A stretch of DNA of 64,000 nt, taken from positions 65,132-129,131 of the forward strand of contig JBAWZC010000001.1 in assembly GCA_037143235.1 (NCBI GenBank), given 5' to 3'. This DNA comes from Candidatus Berkelbacteria bacterium (lineage in GTDB: Bacteria; Patescibacteriota; UBA1384; XYA2-FULL-43-10; 1-14-0-10-43-13). Positions 27,709 to 46,130 of the stretch are shown here, in pieces. The notes beneath the pieces are model-generated. The model saw only the letters and a program-made list of their open reading frames with translations. It did no database searches and had not been told where the DNA came from. How positions within the stretch are numbered: the first letter of the stretch is position 1; each line of letters opens with the position of its first letter. The position numbers and the translations under genes are program-made.

Positions 27709-28057
27709 CTGTCATCTCGAGCCCCCCCCTTTTTTTTGTCATCTCGAGCTTGTCGAGAGATCTTTCAACTCTGGATTCATCTCACAAATCAGAGCTAATT
27801 TCTTTGACCGACTCCATCTTTTTAACTGTTTTTCTCTTTCTAATATTACTTTAACATCATTTGATAATTCGAAATATACTAATTTATGGCATCTGTATTT
27901 CTTTGTAAATCCATCGACTAAATTGTTCTTATGCTCATATACTCTTCGGACAAGATCATTGGTCATGCCGATATACAACACATTACTAAAACTGGCCACA
28001 ATATAAACATAATATGTTTTATCTTGCATAAGATTTCTCCACAAGGTCGAAATGACA
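27709..28057 (-). mobile_element. mini mobile element: GIY-YIG endonuclease gene bracketed by inverted TGTCAT-hairpin repeats (27737-27762 and 28032-28057)
   Basis: TGTCATCTCGAGCTTGTCGAGAGATC on the 3' side and its relative GATTTCTCCACAAGGTCGAAATGACA (inverted) immediately 5' of the ORF start; solo half-copy plus poly(C)/poly(T) at 27709-27737. Confidence 0.6.
27739..28029 (-). CDS. GIY-YIG homing endonuclease-like protein
   Basis: Start MQDKTYYVYIVAS...LYIGMTNDLVRRVYEH (GIY..YIG, R, E motif); ORF-track N-extension is repeat-derived. Confidence 0.8.
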   Translation of the reverse strand: MQDKTYYVYIVASFSNVLYIGMTNDLVRRVYEHKNNLVDGFTKKYRCHKLVYFELSNDVKVILEREKQLKRWSRSKKLALICEMNPELKDLSTSSR

Positions 28058-28173
28058 GGAGTGTGATGGTCCAAACAACAGAAAAACCGGATGAAACGAC
28101 ACTGATTCAGCTAACTGGCTTTCTGGTATAAACAATTATTAGCTTAAACACTTACTAGCTTATCAGCTTGTTT

Positions 28174-33100: not shown

Positions 33101-35921
33101 TGATGCCATACTTGGCACCCAAAGTTTTTTCCACACTATTGCGTGAAGTATTATCTAAAATAGATTTTTGAATAACGACCGGCCCAATCCAACCGTCAAA
33201 GGCTCGGTCACCAGCCGCTTTATTGCCAAGATATGTTGGACCTCCAACAGTAGGAGGTCCAGATACTTGGTCAGCAGTTCCGCTGAGTGCCCCATTAATA
33301 TAAACATTAACTTTACCATCAGCTTTGCGTGTCACAGAAACAACGTAAGGAGTGTTAAAAGCAATTGAAGATATTGGTGTCACCGCATATCCTGTACTGC
33401 TATCACTACTAACCTGTATTGCATTACTATTTACATTACTCATGCATATATAAAATTTGGAATTATCAATAATTCTTCCCACACTACTGCCTCCACTACT
33501 TCTTGGTTTTATCACCGTCGTCACCGTTACATCGCCCGTACCAATCAAATCGGTAGAATTACCCAATGTATCATCAACCCCATCAAATTGAAAAGCTGGG
33601 TGGCTATTTATACCAGATACATCATAAACCGGTCGCAGGGTTTGAGATGTCTGAGTGAAGGTGTTGGAATGACCAGAAAGATCAGTTATTTTACTAACTG
33701 CACCATCATAATAACCAACACCGTATCCCTGAGTAACTGTTCCAACATCACTCAAGTCATTTCCATTGGCTGTCTGGTCTAACCTAGTTCCCGATTTTGT
33801 ATCTAAATTCCAAAATCCTTTGAGACTCGCATCACCAGAAATTGAAGTCGGTAGTCCCGCGTATTTTAATCCTTTGCCGCCATTAAATAATGCTGTTTTT
33901 TCATCTGTCGTTAAAATCCTCTTAATCATTCCCCAGCCGTCAGCACGACCTGGAAGAGAATTTGCTGCCCCATTGGCGTAACTACCGATATTGAAGTCAT
34001 TTGCTGCAGACAAAACCCCAGCGGAAGTCGCCGTAGTAACTGGCGTACCATTGTTTACACTAATAAATATCTGATTGTTTACTGAGTCGTGACCATAAAC
34101 GATAAAATACCAGTTGCTAGTTGAAACAACATCTGTGAATACATTCTGACTAGCGCTATCTGCAGCATTTCTGACATAGAATTGAAACCTATTAAATGGA
34201 GCAACTGTAGCAGTTCTCAACATATATTCACCACCAACACCATTGGCGTTTCCTTTAGAAATAATTCCGCCTGGATTAGAGCCGACAAAGAAATTGTCCA
34301 TATTCACCCAACCAAATAGAGTGAAGTCAATATCTCCAGTTTGTAAAGAGGCGTTGCTTGTTCGTTTTAGATAATTGCTTGTTCCATTAAACTGAGCTGC
34401 AAAGTTAGAGTCTGTTGAAAGTCCTGCAGCGATACCAGCAGCAGCCAGAGGTCCGACTGATTCAATAGTGACATTGTCCAAAAATACTGATTTTGAAATA
34501 TAACCTGAGTTTCCAGTAATATAGAAGTTACCATTAGTGGCTGTAAAATAAACTGTGTATTGAGCATAAGATGTCGTCAGTGTGACCGTTGAGTATCCTG
34601 TGTTACTATCACCAACCCTGATTACAACACCAGTTCCAGAAGCCTTACCATAGAAAGTTACCTTGTACTTTTTACCAGTGACCAAGCCTCCATTTTGAGC
34701 AAGGGAAGCACCTTGTGCAGCAGCATCAAAGTCAAACCTAGCAGCATAAGTTCCTGAGTAAGGAGCGGAAGTTTCAGCATTTATTGTTGATAATCCAGCA
34801 CGAGTCTCTATCCAAGTAGCAAATACGTCAGCACCACCAGCACCGAGAGTCTCAAATCCACCATTGAGAGTCGTAGCATTGATTAGTTGGACGCCAGCAG
34901 GAGTTAAATTGTTAGTACCCTTGGCGTCGTAGCGAGTGCCAGACTCCTCATTCATACCCCACCAAGAAGTCAATGCAGTTTGAAAACTATCCAAACCATT
35001 GGCCGAGGTCAAATCTGCATAAGTACGACCATTGCCAGAATTATACAAAGCTGTTGCTTCGCCAGAAGTTGAAATGGATTTTTTGAAATATGCGGAGTCG
35101 ATACGACCATTGAGAGGTAGTGCGAGGTCGGATTGATTTCCGATTACAAAGGCAGTAGCACCAGCCGTAATAGCTACATCAGCTAAAGAAATTGTAGCAG
35201 CATTATTGACAGAAATGTTGACTGTATTAGCCGTAGCGTCGTGCCAACCCCGAACAAAATACCAAGTAGAAAGGCTCGCCGTTCCAGTTTGTATTGCTAC
35301 CGCAGTATTACCACCAAACTTAAAGTTCTGACTAACAGATGAATACCAAAGTCCATATTCACCACTACCAGCTAATCCTTTTGAAATAATCATTCCACTC
35401 ACATTGCTATCAAGGTAAACCCACGCTCCAACCTCGAAATCGATATCACCAGTCTGGAGCGAGGCGTTGCTTGGAACAGTTAAATAGTCTTTGTTTGCTG
35501 CTGTAAACTGTGCCGCACCATCGGCACTGACGCCAGAAGCAGGGTTGATATTAGTCGTGGCACCAGTGGCAGCACCTGGAGTTGAAAGAGTCGCTTTTGA
35601 ACTTGTAGTGGAAATCCCAGCATCGGCCTGATAAATACTATTGTCGCCACTAAAATTCCAGGTTTGGGTTGCCGCCATAACCTTATCTGGCGAGCCACCG
35701 TAAAAAGTTGTAAGCAAAAAACTGGCGAGCAATAAGATGACGCCGACTGTGACCGAACCAGCTTTGACATTCAAATTCAAATGCTTTTTGCGAAGCTGCC
35801 AAGCAGATGGCTTCGCCGAGATATTATTTTTAACAGCAAAAACACTCTTCTTTACACCTAAAGCAAAAGTTTTTAGACCCTTTACAACTTTTTTGAGGCT
35901 AATCTGCAATCCCCTCCCCAA
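30114..35921 (-). CDS. giant secreted/surface protein (1935 aa) with repeated LamG/ConA-like jelly-roll and FN3-like modules
   Basis: N-terminal TM/signal; repeated LTVPSNASLQTGDIDF.. / LKRTSNASLQTGDIDF.. blocks; Ser/Thr/Asn/Gly-rich beta repeats. Confidence 0.7.
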   Translation of the reverse strand: MGRGLQISLKKVVKGLKTFALGVKKSVFAVKNNISAKPSAWQLRKKHLNLNVKAGSVTVGVILLLASFLLTTFYGGSPDKVMAATQTWNFSGDNSIYQADAGISTTSSKATLSTPGAATGATTNINPASGVSADGAAQFTAANKDYLTVPSNASLQTGDIDFEVGAWVYLDSNVSGMIISKGLAGSGEYGLWYSSVSQNFKFGGNTAVAIQTGTASLSTWYFVRGWHDATANTVNISVNNAATISLADVAITAGATAFVIGNQSDLALPLNGRIDSAYFKKSISTSGEATALYNSGNGRTYADLTSANGLDSFQTALTSWWGMNEESGTRYDAKGTNNLTPAGVQLINATTLNGGFETLGAGGADVFATWIETRAGLSTINAETSAPYSGTYAARFDFDAAAQGASLAQNGGLVTGKKYKVTFYGKASGTGVVIRVGDSNTGYSTVTLTTSYAQYTVYFTATNGNFYITGNSGYISKSVFLDNVTIESVGPLAAAGIAAGLSTDSNFAAQFNGTSNYLKRTSNASLQTGDIDFTLFGWVNMDNFFVGSNPGGIISKGNANGVGGEYMLRTATVAPFNRFQFYVRNAADSASQNVFTDVVSTSNWYFIVYGHDSVNNQIFISVNNGTPVTTATSAGVLSAANDFNIGSYANGAANSLPGRADGWGMIKRILTTDEKTALFNGGKGLKYAGLPTSISGDASLKGFWNLDTKSGTRLDQTANGNDLSDVGTVTQGYGVGYYDGAVSKITDLSGHSNTFTQTSQTLRPVYDVSGINSHPAFQFDGVDDTLGNSTDLIGTGDVTVTTVIKPRSSGGSSVGRIIDNSKFYICMSNVNSNAIQVSSDSSTGYAVTPISSIAFNTPYVVSVTRKADGKVNVYINGALSGTADQVSGPPTVGGPTYLGNKAAGDRAFDGWIGPVVIQKSILDNTSRNSVEKTLGAKYGITVAESSTPAASSSIYPTLSLKSPMTYSSLEGYSESLAGGSTGTLHYQLSNDSTVGSIASASYYYYNGAAWTLADKNNAYQTNTAAEVNANISTFPTITPAHNIKWRAFFVTDGIDNPALSSINMTYVSDTAAPNNPSVVTVVAKNALGGATTLTTDTWHNYATPSFSWTAPADNANQNELTSGLAGYLVYFGTDNTANIGLSSGLVAVGANNGSFIWQNTVGVSDTFTSSTTLVAGSTYYLKVVAVDNASNPAYHATSTDYNLFAYKYDNVAPATPLYVSVAPSGYSRTNNFTFTWPTTGQNAAVDTGGSGLQKYQYRIGNEVSWHDITGDATTNSVTLADVAAQGVNIFYLQAVDTAGNASSLPVRTNFYFNNLAPAAPANLRTTSANSSTNQFAFAWDASPGEIAGYYYSVNVVPSIDSANFASGTSLSTGSYATKQGENILYVVAKDNAGNYDFSGCSPSSVNYNANTDTCAAVAFSATTTAPGIPGAVQAYDISDRNTQNYAVAVKWNAPEDKGTGVFAGYNVYRSTDGVTFANIGPTDSRIFADAGSDVSPMISTQYYYYVVAKDSAGQSSAPSAVVSVTPTGRYTTPPVLVSAPKITVNPTSISVKWVTDRESSSFVQIKNGNTFVSEQGQVAQTTDHEVKVVGLKSQTDYTFNIRSTDVDGNSLLGPNQEFKTANTPSVYDLTVSNITQSSAIINFKSTSMANFTLKYGETSDFGENINEDSNSSTTNHSLAISNLKPGTTYFYRLVGGDSDGNELRSENSFATLPMPTISKFGIEPVKEAPTTTLKVAWETNVPTSGTVKYSTDGVNFKEQSISDLSLVHEIVVSDLADNQKYTVYSQGRDQFGNVAESTKTVFDTPNDSRPPRISDIVIESSNIGNTGNAKAQVAVSWKTDEPASSQVEFGIGLSGNEYTNKTSLDTTFTNHHLVIISDLDPGKPYHLRILSADMSANMSTSGDNTVISGDISRSALQIILNTMQNIFGWMGRWIK

Positions 35922-36035
35922 ATTTATTTACACTTTTCACTTCGGAACTGTATACATATAATTATATACAAAAAAATAACTCGCGACAATGGCAGACAAG
36001 TTATTTTTTTCTGTTCTATAGCTTTTTACAAAGAT

Positions 36036-36178
36036 TGGTGCCCGAGGCGGCCTGCCCGCCATCGCAAGGCTCAGGCATTGCAGGCGGGGAGTCGAACCCG
36101 CATAGCTTGAGGCCACATCATTTTAAGTGATGCGTACCTGCCTGCCGGCAGGCAGGTATACCATTCCACCACTCGCCC
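36036..36178 (-). pseudogene. tRNA-Leu(UAA)-like chimeric/disrupted copy
   Basis: Shares 5' acceptor/D-arm and anticodon arm (CATCA-CTTAAAA-TGATG) with intact tRNA at 36305-36389 but has a 20-nt palindrome (CTGCCTGCCGGCAGGCAGG) after the D-arm, a ~34-nt insert after the T-arm, and a 3' acceptor (CTCGGGC) that pairs with the 5' fragment at 36690, not its own 5' end. Confidence 0.55.
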
Positions 36179-36304
36179 ATTATTGTTTTAACTATTTTCC
36201 AAGAACCGTTTATAAGCTCTATTCTACCATTCAATGAGAAATCGGCTACCTTTTTGTGAAGCAAAAGAATGGCTGCGGATCGGCATGCTGTTTAAATTTA
36301 TTTG

Positions 36305-36389
36305 TGGTAGGCGAGGCGGGAGTCGAACCCGCATCCCTTGAGGGGACATCATTTTAAGTGATGCGTGTATACCATTCCACCACTCGCCC
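36305..36389 (-). tRNA. tRNA-Leu(UAA), CCA encoded
   Basis: GGGCGAG..GTGGAATGGTATAC..CATCA-CTTAAAA-TGATG..long variable arm..GCGGGTTCGACTCCCGC..CTCGCCT-ACCA. Confidence 0.85.
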
Positions 36390-36390
36390 A

Positions 36391-36632
36391 TTATTGTTTT
36401 AACAAACCGTCGATCTCTTCTCTTCCGATACCTGATTTAAAATACTTTTCTCTTTCCCGTGCTTCTGTTCTAGTGGCATATTTCTCAAAATGAATCAACT
36501 TCAAGGGCATTTTATTTTTCGTTGACCGAACTCTTCCAGAATTATGCTGACTTATTCTTCTTTCAAGATTATCAGTTAATCCTTTGTAAACAAAATTACG
36601 AGACTCTGATTTTAGAAGATACACATAATACA
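36391..36632 (-). CDS. GIY-YIG homing endonuclease-like protein
   Basis: Start MYYVYLLKSESRNFVYKGLTDNLERRISQHN; ATG directly abuts a duplicated tRNA anticodon-loop segment; ORF-track N-extension is tRNA-derived. Confidence 0.8.
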
Positions 36633-36690
36633 TTTTAAGTCCTTCGTGCCTGCCTGCCGGCAGGCAGGTATACCATTCCACCACTCGGGC
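36633..36690 (-). pseudogene. tRNA-Leu 5'-half fragment (acceptor GCCCGAG..D-arm..palindrome..anticodon loop CTTAAAA)
   Basis: GCCCGAGTGGTGGAATGGTATAC-CTGCCTGCCGGCAGGCAGG-CACGAAGGACTTAAAATG; ends at GIY-YIG ATG. Confidence 0.6.
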
Positions 36691-36692
36691 TT

Positions 36693-37700
36693 TTATACAA
36701 TTTCCCAAATATTATTGACCTTGGATAGCTCACCTTCGATCGTAAACCCAGCAGCTTTTTTATGGCCGCCGCCGCCAAGCAGTGAGGCTAATTTTGACAG
36801 GTCAACATCATCTCGCTCAGTTCGCAAGCTCCCCATGATAGTACCATTTTCACTCTCGTATATCAACAAAGTCGCCCGAGTTCCGGGCACAGTATTCAGC
36901 AAATTAATCAAACCAGAAAGATCATCCTCTGACGCCCCAGATAGCAATCTATCTTCTTTCGACAAAACTGAATAAGCAATGCCAAACTCATCATTTATCG
37001 ACAGACGATCCATCGCCACTCCCCAAATTTTCAGCTTTGAAACTGACTTTTCGTGAGAAATATTCTCAGAGATTTTCTTCAATCTAGCTCCACAACACAA
37101 CAGCTTGGAGACTATTTTCATCACATCTTCCGAGGTATTGCTGTGCTGAAAACCGCCTGTATCAGTGTATATTCCGCACAAAATATAGGTCGCAACATCA
37201 GCATCAATATCACAGCCTAGTCCAGTTACGATCCGATAAACTATTTCAGCCGTCGAACTTGCCTGATCATCCACATAGTTCACATCGGCCAGTCGCCAGA
37301 GATCATTTTTGGGATGATGGTCGATATTGATAACAAAATTGCCATTTTTCTTGCAGTCAAGAATCATTTGCTCAACCTTGGTTCGACGCAAATCACCACA
37401 ATCCAAAATAATGATCGTCTCTTCTTGGGAAACAGTGAGACTATGAAGTCCATTCGTACTAACAATCTGGTCGTGCTCACCGAGAAATCGGAAAACTTCC
37501 GGTACTGGGTCAGCACAAATCATTCTGACTTCCTTGTTCTTTTGCCTCAACATTGCCGCCATTGCAAGAATAGACCCGACGGCATCACCATCAGGACTCT
37601 CGTGGCAAATGAGCACAAAAGATTTGGTTCCCTCGATCAACTTTTTCAGATTTGAGAATGAACCCATGTGAAATATAATTACCGATTGATCAAGATACAA
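36693..37700 (-). CDS. DHH/DHHA1 family phosphoesterase (NrnA-like)
   Basis: LICHESPDGDAVGS, NIDHHP motifs. Confidence 0.85.
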   Translation of the reverse strand: MYLDQSVIIFHMGSFSNLKKLIEGTKSFVLICHESPDGDAVGSILAMAAMLRQKNKEVRMICADPVPEVFRFLGEHDQIVSTNGLHSLTVSQEETIIILDCGDLRRTKVEQMILDCKKNGNFVINIDHHPKNDLWRLADVNYVDDQASSTAEIVYRIVTGLGCDIDADVATYILCGIYTDTGGFQHSNTSEDVMKIVSKLLCCGARLKKISENISHEKSVSKLKIWGVAMDRLSINDEFGIAYSVLSKEDRLLSGASEDDLSGLINLLNTVPGTRATLLIYESENGTIMGSLRTERDDVDLSKLASLLGGGGHKKAAGFTIEGELSKVNNIWEIV

Positions 37701-37850
37701 TAACCAAGAAACAATAATCAGTTAATATCCAATTACCAATTTCCAACCTGCCTGTCGGCAGACAAATTACTCAATCAATGTTCATATAATCAAATTACCA
37801 AATAAATGGCTAAATGATTAATTGATTAAATGACTAAATGATTAAATGCT
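37681..37850. repeat. ~150-nt intergenic repeat family copy (inverted orientation)
   Basis: reverse complement matches 24827-24980 family (..ggatattaactgattattgtttcttggttattgtatcttg..). Confidence 0.75.
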
Positions 37851-41253: not shown

Positions 41254-41484
41254 TCAAATTCTTTTTTTTAAATAGGCTCTGCCAAATCCAGTCTTCAATG
41301 ATTTTTCTCTCGAGATTGCTTTTTCTCTGCTCAGACATGCCTCGTAATACACCAACTTGAAAGGAATTCTGTCGCTCGTTGATTTCACCTTGCCAGCATT
41401 ATGTTCTTCCACTCGTCCTTTCAAATCATCAGACCACCCGATATACAAATCGTTATCTCGCAAACTCTTTAATACATAAGTGTA
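41254..41484 (-). CDS. GIY-YIG homing endonuclease-like protein
   Basis: MYYTYVLKSLRDNDLYIGWSDDLKGRVEEHN; 6 nt from tRNA-Leu(CAG); upstream leader shares GGCCTGCCCGCC..ATCGCAA..CAGGCATTGC block with insert in tRNA-like 36036-36178. Confidence 0.8.
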   Translation of the reverse strand, partial: YTYVLKSLRDNDLYIGWSDDLKGRVEEHNAGKVKSTSDRIPFKLVYYEACLSREKAISREKSLKTGFGRAYLKKRI

Positions 41485-41617
41485 ATACATAGCCTTATTA
41501 TATTCCATTTCACCCGCCTGCAAAAGCTGCTGCTTTAGCAATGCCTGCCAGCAATCGCTTTGCGATAGCAATGCAGGCTGGCGGGCAGGCCATTCGCCCA
41601 TAAACAAATAAAACTCT

Positions 41618-45474: not shown

Positions 45475-45738
45475 TTATTTGACTGACAAATAACTGGCTA
45501 ATTGTTTTTTCAAAAATCTGCGACCAGATCCACTTTTTAGAAATTTCTCTCTTCCCAGAGCGTCTCTCTTGTCAAGATAACTTTCGGAATAAATCAACTT
45601 CCAACATCCTTGCTTCCGACCGGTATAATCACCGCCGATCTTGCTATTATGTTCCGTCAATCTGCGATCGATATCAGTCGTAAATCCTGTATACCAAGAC
45701 TTATCGATCGAATTCTCAATCAGATAAACGAAAAACAT
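45475..45738 (-). CDS. GIY-YIG homing endonuclease-like protein
   Basis: MFFVYLIENSIDKSWYTGFTTDIDRRLTEHN; abuts tRNA-Cys by 1 nt. Confidence 0.8.
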   Translation of the reverse strand: MFFVYLIENSIDKSWYTGFTTDIDRRLTEHNSKIGGDYTGRKQGCWKLIYSESYLDKRDALGREKFLKSGSGRRFLKKQLASYLSVK

Positions 45739-45910: not shown

Positions 45911-45950
45911 TGGTGCCGATGGTCAGAATTGGACTGACGACACAAGGCCC
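45911..45950 (-). pseudogene. 3' half of a split tRNA-Phe paralog (..CCTTGTGTCGTCAGTCCAATTCTGACCATCGGCACCA)
   Basis: T-arm + acceptor CATCGGC-ACCA pairs with 5' half at 46100-46130 (GCCGATG). Confidence 0.55.
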
Positions 45951-46008
45951 CGAAAAACAAATCTTTGATTTGTATCGGGGTAAAATTTTCAACTTGCCCC
46001 GTAAAAAT

Positions 46009-46083
<75 letters not shown>

Positions 46084-46099
46084 CAATTTTTTTTACGGG

Positions 46100-46130
46100 G
46101 TCCTCTGCTCTACCACTGAGCTACATCGGC
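46100..46130 (-). pseudogene. 5' half of the split tRNA-Phe paralog (GCCGATGTAGCTCAGTGGTAGAGCAGAGGAC)
   Basis: Ends in anticodon stem; followed by CCCGTAAAAA.. inverted-repeat arm. Confidence 0.55.

Follow-up and report, generated by a model that had tools for sequence, protein, structure and literature searches.

Among described systems, the closest known is the pairing of Ssn nucleases with hairpin repeats (SsnA/NTS of Neisseria meningitidis; SRM; cd10448), to which we liken the present locus by features and description. Ssn proteins are single-domain GIY-YIG nucleases of about 94 amino acids (aa) that cut single-stranded DNA next to a hairpin; the hairpin repeats flank their genes and are found dispersed as well (Chenal et al., Nat Commun 2025, PMC11893778). 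The authors describe the repeat-gene-repeat layout as resembling that of an insertion sequence and propose domestication, they report no insertion events, and their paper makes no mention of tRNA, of a carried replacement tRNA, or of the palindrome that we call pal1 (PMC11893778). Here we describe a locus at positions 36036-36690 of a 64,000-nucleotide (nt) stretch of DNA from a Candidatus Berkelbacteria bacterium (hereafter the window, whose positions are used for all coordinates). At this locus a tRNA-Leu(UAA) gene is split by a 532-nt insert (36137-36668) that carries an 80-aa GIY-YIG open reading frame (ORF) and an intact tRNA-Leu(UAA), with a copy of pal1, a perfect 20-nt palindrome (CCTGCCTGCCGGCAGGCAGG), at either end.

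The likeness to Ssn extends to several features. Ssn-type proteins are single-domain GIY-YIG proteins of about 80-94 aa, and here the protein has 80 aa with the domain at residues 1-67. In both cases a hairpin repeat that is scattered through genomes flanks the gene (here pal1, which lies on both sides of it in the window, near it in 41 of 58 homologues, and in at least 120 genomes overall), the repeat-gene-repeat layout resembles an insertion sequence, and many nuclease and repeat pairs appear to co-evolve. The repeat found here differs in being a perfect 20-bp palindrome without orientation that is identical across distant phyla; the gene differs in lying within tRNA genes, where part of a tRNA is duplicated and a replacement tRNA is carried along; and the nearest solved relatives of the protein are UPF0213 proteins. 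Identification of pal1 as an SRM repeat was rejected, as the published consensus HGTCWY...RNCYNB was matched in 0 of 80 nuclease loci and no GTCAT-type arm was present. In another locus (L103:463-1800), three pilin-like genes in tandem contain in-frame SRM-pattern matches at their 5' ends (peptide SRFRGNDGF), indicating that SRM-type hairpin repeats can also be carried inside genes.

Other systems share single aspects of this arrangement. SegB-type enzymes are about 200 aa or more in length and possess a DNA-binding domain, and we know of no hairpin repeat, split or duplicated tRNA, or solo remnants associated with them. The likeness to SegB of phage T4 (PMC2330249) is that a GIY-YIG gene lies among tRNA genes and apparently travels with flanking tRNA sequence. 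In islands and prophages that integrate at tRNA genes, the element likewise carries part of the tRNA (here all of it), the function of the tRNA survives, and a displaced tRNA fragment marks the far end. Those elements differ in using the 3' half of the tRNA rather than the D-arm, in ending in att repeats rather than palindromes, and in measuring 10-100 kb rather than about 0.5 kb; no integrase was found in the 532-nt insert, whose sole domain-bearing ORF is the GIY-YIG gene. REP sequences with their RAYT enzymes (relatives of IS200/IS605) also combine a nuclease gene with flanking palindromes that it is thought to disperse and with many solo copies, but the RAYT enzyme is of the HUH tyrosine type rather than GIY-YIG, and REPs are species-specific and extragenic whereas pal1 crosses phyla and enters genes. 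Rickettsia palindromic elements are similar in that a short palindromic element is found in-frame in conserved protein genes and in RNA genes; these elements are about 100-150 bp long and confined to Rickettsia and its relatives, and to our knowledge no nuclease gene is associated with them. Terminal inverted repeats of the kind seen in insertion sequences and miniature inverted-repeat elements are present (pal1 at both ends, itself palindromic). The locus differs from an ordinary transposon in having no target duplications at pal1 and no known transposase, and GIY-YIG is, as far as we know, not a DNA transposase fold. Searches of the literature for the palindrome, its core, the peptide LPAGRQ, and GIY-YIG genes with tRNA fragments found no description in the library searched, and both the tRNA-nested GIY-YIG cassette and pal1 appear to be undescribed.

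The locus is read on the minus strand, on which a 5' tRNA-Leu fragment (piece A) is followed by the 80-aa GIY-YIG ORF, an intact tRNA-Leu(UAA) (piece B) and a tRNA-like copy with two inserts (piece C). All four pieces of the order proposed by an earlier, sequence-only reading are present. The features are as follows.

36690-36634, minus strand: piece A, 5' tRNA-Leu fragment, consisting of GCCCGAG, the D-arm, the palindrome and then CACGAAGGACTTAAA
36669-36690, minus strand: nt 1-22 of the resident ('outer') tRNA-Leu(UAA), acceptor 5' strand GCCCGAG and D-arm to GGTATA
36649-36668, no strand: left copy of pal1, with which the insert opens on the left; compared with B a clean insertion of 20 nt, no target duplication
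36634-36648, minus strand: tRNA-like nt 23-37, CACGAAGGACTTAAA, diverged from B, with AAGGA about 7 nt ahead of the ATG
36391-36633, minus strand: GIY-YIG nuclease ORF, 80 aa plus stop, single domain (Pfam PF01541)
36305-36389, minus strand: piece B, replacement tRNA-Leu(UAA), intact, CCA encoded (ARAGORN; Rfam tRNA 59.5 bits; cloverleaf)
36192-36304, minus strand: 113-nt spacer between B and repeat D1, with no detectable origin and no GIY-YIG remnant by tblastn or blastn
36157-36191, minus strand: repeat D1, the last 13 nt of the GIY-YIG ORF repeated plus B-type tRNA nt 1-22 (GGGCGAG...)
36178-36036, minus strand: piece C, tRNA-like copy, rejected as it stands by ARAGORN and Rfam
36137-36156, no strand: right copy of pal1, with which the insert closes on the right; like the left copy, at tRNA position 22/23
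36036-36136, minus strand: resident ('outer') tRNA-Leu(UAA), nt 23 to CCA, broken by pal2; its 3' strand CTCGGGC pairs with 36690-36684
36051-36088, minus strand: pal2, a GC-rich, imperfect hairpin of 38 nt (CCCGCCTGCAATGCC...GGCGGGCAGG), located where loop and stem of the resident tRNA's T-arm meet

The pal1 19-mer core would be expected 0.01 times by chance in the window and was observed twice in exact form, both copies standing directly after GGTATA at tRNA nt 22/23, one in A and one in C. The sequence-only reading had noticed two palindromic inserts, and both are there; the second is best delimited as the 38-nt pal2 rather than as the 34-nt block (36050-36083) that it had marked. That the palindromes are recurrent elements, and that the insert has pal1 at either end, had escaped it. 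Read from left to right, the insert consists of pal1, 15 tRNA-like nt, the nuclease gene, B, the 113-nt spacer, the 13-nt ORF tail, B-type tRNA nt 1-22, and pal1, and the junction of a circular or tandem form of it would read from B-type tRNA nt 1-22 through pal1 to CACGAAGG. The 35 nt before the right pal1 site (36157-36191) are 100% identical to 36368-36402, with repeat D1 extending over 36367-36403; the 13 nt preceding B and the 13 nt preceding C are the same, both being the tail of the GIY-YIG ORF. A decayed second GIY-YIG copy between B and C was considered and rejected, since tblastn and blastn recovered merely this 13-nt tail. The start codon, which had been placed at 36632, is at 36633, and the 5' fragment ends at 36634. 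The 15-nt tRNA-like stretch before it is probably the leader of the ORF, with a role in ribosome binding suggested by AAGGA. A promoter and terminator scan of the locus gave nothing informative. A degenerate copy of pal1 (TTGTCTGCCGACAGGCAGG, 3 of 19 positions mismatched) is found at 37747-37765, in intergenic DNA upstream of the DHH gene.

When A (nt 1-22) is joined to C (nt 23 to the end) in silico, with both inserts removed, the result is a perfect tRNA-Leu(UAA) cloverleaf with 7 of 7 Watson-Crick acceptor pairs. As the sequence-only reading had proposed, the strand CTCGGGC of C pairs with A rather than with its own 5' end: it is the exact complement of GCCCGAG in A, whereas pairing with C's own 5' end gives two G.G mismatches. 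The outer pieces are therefore one resident tRNA-Leu(UAA), split at a single point between nt 22 and 23 in the D-arm, the site of the palindrome, and not after the anticodon loop as first described; this split point and the anatomy of the locus are observed directly. Only B is recognised as a tRNA at the locus by ARAGORN and Rfam, in agreement with the earlier identification of an intact, CCA-encoding gene at 36389-36305. B begins 1 nt past the ORF stop, and its acceptor stem (GGGCGAG/CTCGCCT) differs from that of the resident tRNA. It shares the unusual, lineage-specific D-loop GGAA-TGGTATA with A and C, which rules out a distant donor and points to a closely related lineage as its source.

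A relative without the insert is available. In a syntenic locus (L204), the gene order S1, beta-lactamase-fold protein and DHH protein is kept, the DHH (NrnA-like) protein being 52% identical, and downstream of DHH there is one intact tRNA-Leu(UAA) with the acceptor stem GCCCGAG/CTCGGGC, the same as that of the outer halves here. Neither a GIY-YIG gene nor pal1 was found at this syntenic site. A presence/absence polymorphism at one precise site may be what this distant relative (DHH 52% identity) reflects. Closer strains were sought by exact look-up of the 80-aa ORF, the 335-aa DHH call and the protein P0094, with no matching record; a look-up of P0095 led to a contig that stops short of the tRNA site. 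The idea of the sequence-only reading, that a tRNA-Leu was split by an element carrying both a nuclease and a replacement tRNA, is supported by the rejoined cloverleaf, by the acceptor stem in L204 and by recurrence of the design elsewhere (L198, below).

The ORF product belongs to the GIY-YIG nuclease superfamily, as judged from its match to Pfam PF01541 (E=2.3e-16, covering residues 1-67) and from the catalytic residues Y5, Y16, G18, R26, H30 and E62, which are intact and invariant in an alignment of 37 homologues. Among proteins of solved structure, BH0048 and EF2693 of the UPF0213 type come closest (E about 1e-10), and SLX1 structures were also matched. With its 80 aa and single domain, the product is more like the Ssn-type hairpin nucleases than like classical homing endonucleases, which have a DNA-binding domain. 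The public gene call (P0001, 36391-36708, minus strand) is 105 aa long with a TTG start and is wrongly extended through pal1 and the tRNA fragment, its first 25 residues being a translation of these (...CLPAGR...). The family comprises 5,573 cluster representatives at E<=1e-10, many of which match the profile only from residue 20-58 onward in the protein library, and these late matches may reflect similar over-long gene calls.

In order to see how far the arrangement recurs, metagenomes were scanned with the family alignment. The scan yielded 80 loci, of which 58 are unique full-length copies with enough flanking sequence for comparison. An intact tRNA is directly adjacent to the ORF in 51 of these 58 homologues (88%). 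It lies downstream in 40, with the ORF stop abutting or overlapping tRNA nt 1, and upstream in 12. A copy of pal1 with at most 3 mismatches is found within 110 nt upstream or 200 nt downstream of the ORF in 41 of the 58 (71%), inside a partial tRNA copy; seven GIY-YIG/tRNA pairs lack tRNA fragment and pal1 alike, and in five there is a fragment that is free of pal1. Where the tRNA is downstream, the order is tRNA nt 1 to x, pal1, nt x+1 to y, the ORF and the full tRNA; where it is upstream, the full tRNA with a terminator is followed by the ORF, a few tRNA nt, pal1 and the remaining tRNA. In both layouts pal1 is a clean 20-nt insertion into the partial tRNA copy. The position of that insertion varies, with x ranging from nt 11 to nt 32, while the distance from pal1 to the junction of fragment and ORF is 8-17 nt in 22 of 26 tRNA-downstream loci (23 measured, and three, namely the window, L039 and L108, read by eye) and 6-12 nt in the tRNA-upstream loci. 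This short and nearly constant distance fits a cut at a fixed distance from the hairpin, of the kind reported for SsnA (PMC11893778). In the nuclease loci, exact pal1 is concentrated near the ORF, with 45 copies in about 80 kb up to 400 nt from it and 3 copies in 203 kb beyond, a difference in density of about 38-fold. The recurrence of the design, and the linkage of pal1 both to the nuclease family and to tRNA fragments, are direct observations.

The full three-part design is repeated in a tRNA-Phe gene (L198), where the outer acceptor stem is GCCGGAC/GTCCGGC, the inner tRNA has GCCGCGG/CCGCGGC, and both pal1 copies follow CATCGGTA, at the same tRNA position on either side. Related arrangements occur in independent assemblies (L151, L150 and L002/L132). 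The closest homologue, with 68% identity (L002), lies between a tRNA-Val and an intact tRNA-Leu(CAG), the latter followed by a 5'-truncated tRNA-Leu copy with the same pal1. Leucine tRNAs were the commonest hosts (23 of 45 in a first count). Nucleases that are at least 80% identical sit at the same tRNA type in 14 of 14 pairs, and most pairs at 60-70% identity differ. For 32 of 39 pal1-associated and 10 of 19 pal1-free nucleases the nearest neighbour has the same pal1 state, so that by sequence relationship the two classes tend to cluster separately; exact pal1 is conserved beside proteins that are only 50-60% identical. One further homologue (L095:4761-5030, E=1.7e-18) lies within an apparent 23S rRNA gene of a Patescibacteria genome.

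The exact pal1 20-mer is present in at least 120 species genomes, against about 0.5 expected by chance by our estimate (4^20 against 596 Gb). Judged by record titles, the matches listed include many Patescibacteria, as well as Omnitrophota, Planctomycetes, Thermodesulfovibrio and Chloroflexi; Bacteroidota, among them cultured Winogradskyella, Flagellimonas, Flavivirga and Longitalea; and Gammaproteobacteria, Deltaproteobacteria and Bdellovibrionales. Among the same matches an intact tRNA is found within 300 nt of pal1 in 15 of 120 loci. Solo copies are nested in another pal1 (L020, L044), lie in intergenic DNA, or stand in-frame in conserved genes, where pal1 adds the peptide LPAGRQ to FtsK (ATPase domain), GatB (N-terminal domain), ribosomal protein S6 and a PMT_2 glycosyltransferase (L015:5955, L106:3773, L049:3381 and L073:5886). 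Target-site duplication by pal1 was rejected, as 89% of 165 solo copies have a flanking repeat of 0-1 nt; an exact 7-nt flanking direct repeat was found at 5 of the 165, mostly in heptamer tandem arrays, and no target duplication was found at the tRNA sites. Some solo copies lie within short tandem repeats such as TCTAAAA, AATTACG and TGAGAGG (L084:346, L103:1815, L052:3400, L060:1870, L208:10596, L216:8396). A single 29.5-kb viral contig (L228, L235, L236) holds at least six copies, embedded in repeats of larger size that form two families; copies of one family run in both orientations. In another viral contig (L232:2239-2330), and also in L209, ARAGORN still accepts a tRNA-Met whose variable loop contains pal1, and it may be that the hairpin mimics a long variable arm and leaves the tRNA functional.

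The reading that we favour, and to which we give about an even chance, is that a 532-nt, pal1-bounded cassette of nuclease and replacement tRNA, moved by hairpin-directed cutting, interrupts a resident tRNA-Leu(UAA) gene at nt 22/23. By analogy with Ssn, pal1 would be the recognition hairpin of this GIY-YIG clade, and the nuclease would cut a few nt beside it to leave a recombinogenic break. Such a break could provoke recombination in which the cassette is copied or integrated from pal1 to pal1, with the conserved tRNA sequence around pal1 serving as homology arms. Insertion into an essential tRNA gene would be tolerated because the cassette brings its own tRNA, which would also make the cassette hard to delete, and the nuclease gene would end up between the promoter region of the tRNA and the tRNA that the cell needs. 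Solo 20-nt copies of pal1 might arise by recombination between two pal1 ends or by movement of pal1 alone, and pal2 may be another such hairpin element, inserted into the 3' part once this had become dispensable. For the specificity of the nuclease, the recombination route and the direction of events, these steps are what we infer. More tentatively, and here we are more doubtful than convinced, pal1 and its GIY-YIG clade may represent an unrecognised type of mobile element, one bounded by a 20-bp hairpin, targeting tRNA genes, and relying on an 80-aa nuclease and host recombination with no integrase or transposase.

A number of points weigh against a pal1-bounded, nuclease-moved cassette. We know of no strand transfer by GIY-YIG enzymes, and host recombination must therefore be assumed; hairpin-directed cutting by an 80-aa protein is suggested by the analogy with Ssn. 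The cassette has tRNA-derived sequence on the inner side of each pal1, so each junction also looks like a solo pal1 in a tRNA copy, and the locus would look no different if a duplication had come first and pal1 invasion or gene conversion later; A and C are 93% identical over a shared 57 nt. The window derives from a metagenome assembly, and since L204 is a distant relative the polarity of events is one that we infer. Among the matches listed, a GIY-YIG ORF lies within 150 nt of pal1 in only 5 of 120 loci, and pal1 was found in 35 viral-contig stretches as against just one for the nuclease family, which suggests that pal1 may spread without the nuclease gene in cis, or by another agent. A preference of pal1 for hairpin loops, an idea prompted by several of its contexts and then tested, was not borne out (18% of 123 sites against 16% of 1230 controls), the mean folding energy at pal1 sites being -5.8 as against -4.8 in controls (p=0.054).

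Much of the data would also be accommodated by two alternatives. In the first, the nuclease is a classical free-standing homing endonuclease that cuts the double-stranded DNA of an uninterrupted D-arm, with break repair copying the insert and co-converting its flanks, pal1 being merely the terminal sequence. The insert does sit at one precise point of a conserved gene and disrupts the site, B and the resident tRNA have unlike acceptor stems, which is what co-conversion with a foreign donor should produce, closely related nucleases keep to the same tRNA type, and in T4 SegB a homing enzyme of the GIY-YIG type is already known to act in a cluster of tRNA genes (PMC2330249). We nevertheless regard this alternative as unlikely. 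At just 80 aa, the protein is without the DNA-binding domain used by characterised homing GIY-YIG enzymes; B carries the same D-arm (GGTATA followed by CACG) and would hence be a target again; and homing explains neither the solo pal1 copies in protein genes and intergenic DNA nor the near-constant distance between pal1 and the ORF junction, which is maintained while the position in the tRNA moves from nt 11 to nt 32.

In the second alternative two unrelated processes are involved, in which GIY-YIG-linked tandem tRNA duplication or unequal crossing-over leaves dead tRNA copies and an autonomous pal1, moved by some other enzyme, accumulates there; in this proposal insertions into live tRNAs are lethal, hence the dead copies fill. 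That most pal1 copies have no GIY-YIG gene nearby, that viral contigs carry pal1 and no nuclease gene, and that pal1 also occurs in protein-coding genes would all be expected, as would the seven GIY-YIG/tRNA pairs with neither fragment nor pal1, the five with a fragment only, and the tandem arrays in L139, L172, L175 and L188. The fragments are only 25-45 nt long, yet about 70% of the nuclease loci have pal1; pal1 stands near the ORF junction on whichever side the dead copy lies; in the window as in L198, either end of the insert has a copy of it at one and the same tRNA position; and its presence follows the phylogeny of the nuclease. These four observations weigh against independent accumulation, and we hold this explanation to be improbable.

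We think it very improbable that the locus is an assembly artefact, in which strain variants of one tRNA locus were misjoined by a metagenome assembler. The contig is of MEGAHIT style (record name k141_293778, which suggests k=141) and A, B and C do look like allelic variants, but the shared repeats are at most 57 nt long, below the k-mer implied by the contig name, so that graph confusion is not expected, and the three-part design is also found in independent assemblies from other samples and phyla. The least credible account, an intron or split gene whose outer halves are transcribed and joined (as a degenerate group I intron or by trans-splicing) around an intron with a homing endonuclease, was raised by the sequence-only reading on the ground that tRNA-Leu(UAA) is the classic group I intron host, and tRNA group I introns are reported in Patescibacteria (PMC13011429), but Rfam found no group I, group II or other relevant intron family over 35800-36900 at E<=10, the split at nt 22/23 is in the D-arm and outside the anticodon loop, a complete tRNA of the same identity inside the insert makes the outer gene redundant, and the outer 3' part holds an additional 38-nt insert.

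Returning to the hairpin-bounded cassette, the window holds other arrangements of the same kind that the sequence-only reading had not included, namely two more GIY-YIG/tRNA nests and a second nested tRNA, with three further GIY-YIG paralogues in all:

41254-41599, minus strand: paralogous nest with a 5' tRNA-Leu fragment from 41599 and a GIY-YIG ORF (78 aa) at 41490-41254
45475-45738, minus strand: paralogous GIY-YIG ORF, 87 aa, which stops 2 nt ahead of a tRNA-Cys (45472-45399)
45911-46130, minus strand: intact tRNA-Phe (46083-46009) between the halves of a split tRNA (GCCGATG...CATCGGC)

In the first of these, a hairpin resembling pal2 and about 75 nt long interrupts the fragment at about 41588-41513, and 5 nt past the ORF lies an intact tRNA-Leu(CAG) (41248-41164). 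The ORF at 45475-45738 is downstream of the nested tRNA-Phe. The split tRNA around the latter has its 5' part at 46130-46100 (GCCGATG...) and its 3' part at 45947-45911 (...CATCGGCACCA), this outer tRNA being without an anticodon loop; the insert is bounded by CCCCGTAAAAA/TTTTTACGGGG inverted repeats, and further copies of the motif are nearby. Three nuclease/tRNA nests in one window, each with a different repeat, are what co-evolving nuclease and hairpin pairs would produce. Relatives of pal2 were found elsewhere, one of 50 nt in a tRNA fragment that immediately precedes a nuclease ORF, where it occupies the D-loop junction (L201), and one in the T-loop of a tRNA fragment (L118). Other GC-rich palindromes (CCCGCCCGTACC...GGGCGGG; TCCCCGCCCGACCGCCGGTCAGGCGGGCGGGGA) replace pal1 at the D-loop site in L041:850-1300 and L172, where they adjoin GIY-YIG genes or their remnants at tRNA genes. 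The fourth GIY-YIG ORF of the window (27742-28110, minus strand; family profile E=2.5e-15) is more distant and has a YhbQ/UPF0213-like C-terminus, EKQLKRWSRSKK.

With this locus and its relatives there are now sites with and without the insert, precisely placed boundaries and a cargo, and the mobility hypothesis for Ssn becomes directly testable. They explain one source of tRNA gene fragments and of mis-called proteins, many database entries of the family having 20-50 extra N-terminal residues that are probably read through pal1 and a tRNA fragment, and they reveal a 20-bp sequence that is identical across several phyla and candidate phyla and is carried in-frame even in FtsK, GatB and ribosomal protein S6. 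If the nuclease is palindrome-specific, it would be another small programmable DNA-cutting tool. Were the mobile-element interpretation true, the solo 20-nt ends of pal1 would be the smallest known mobile palindromes, crossing phyla and persisting in-frame in essential genes. The arrangement suggests a way in which a selfish gene could occupy an essential tRNA gene safely, which is to bring a spare.

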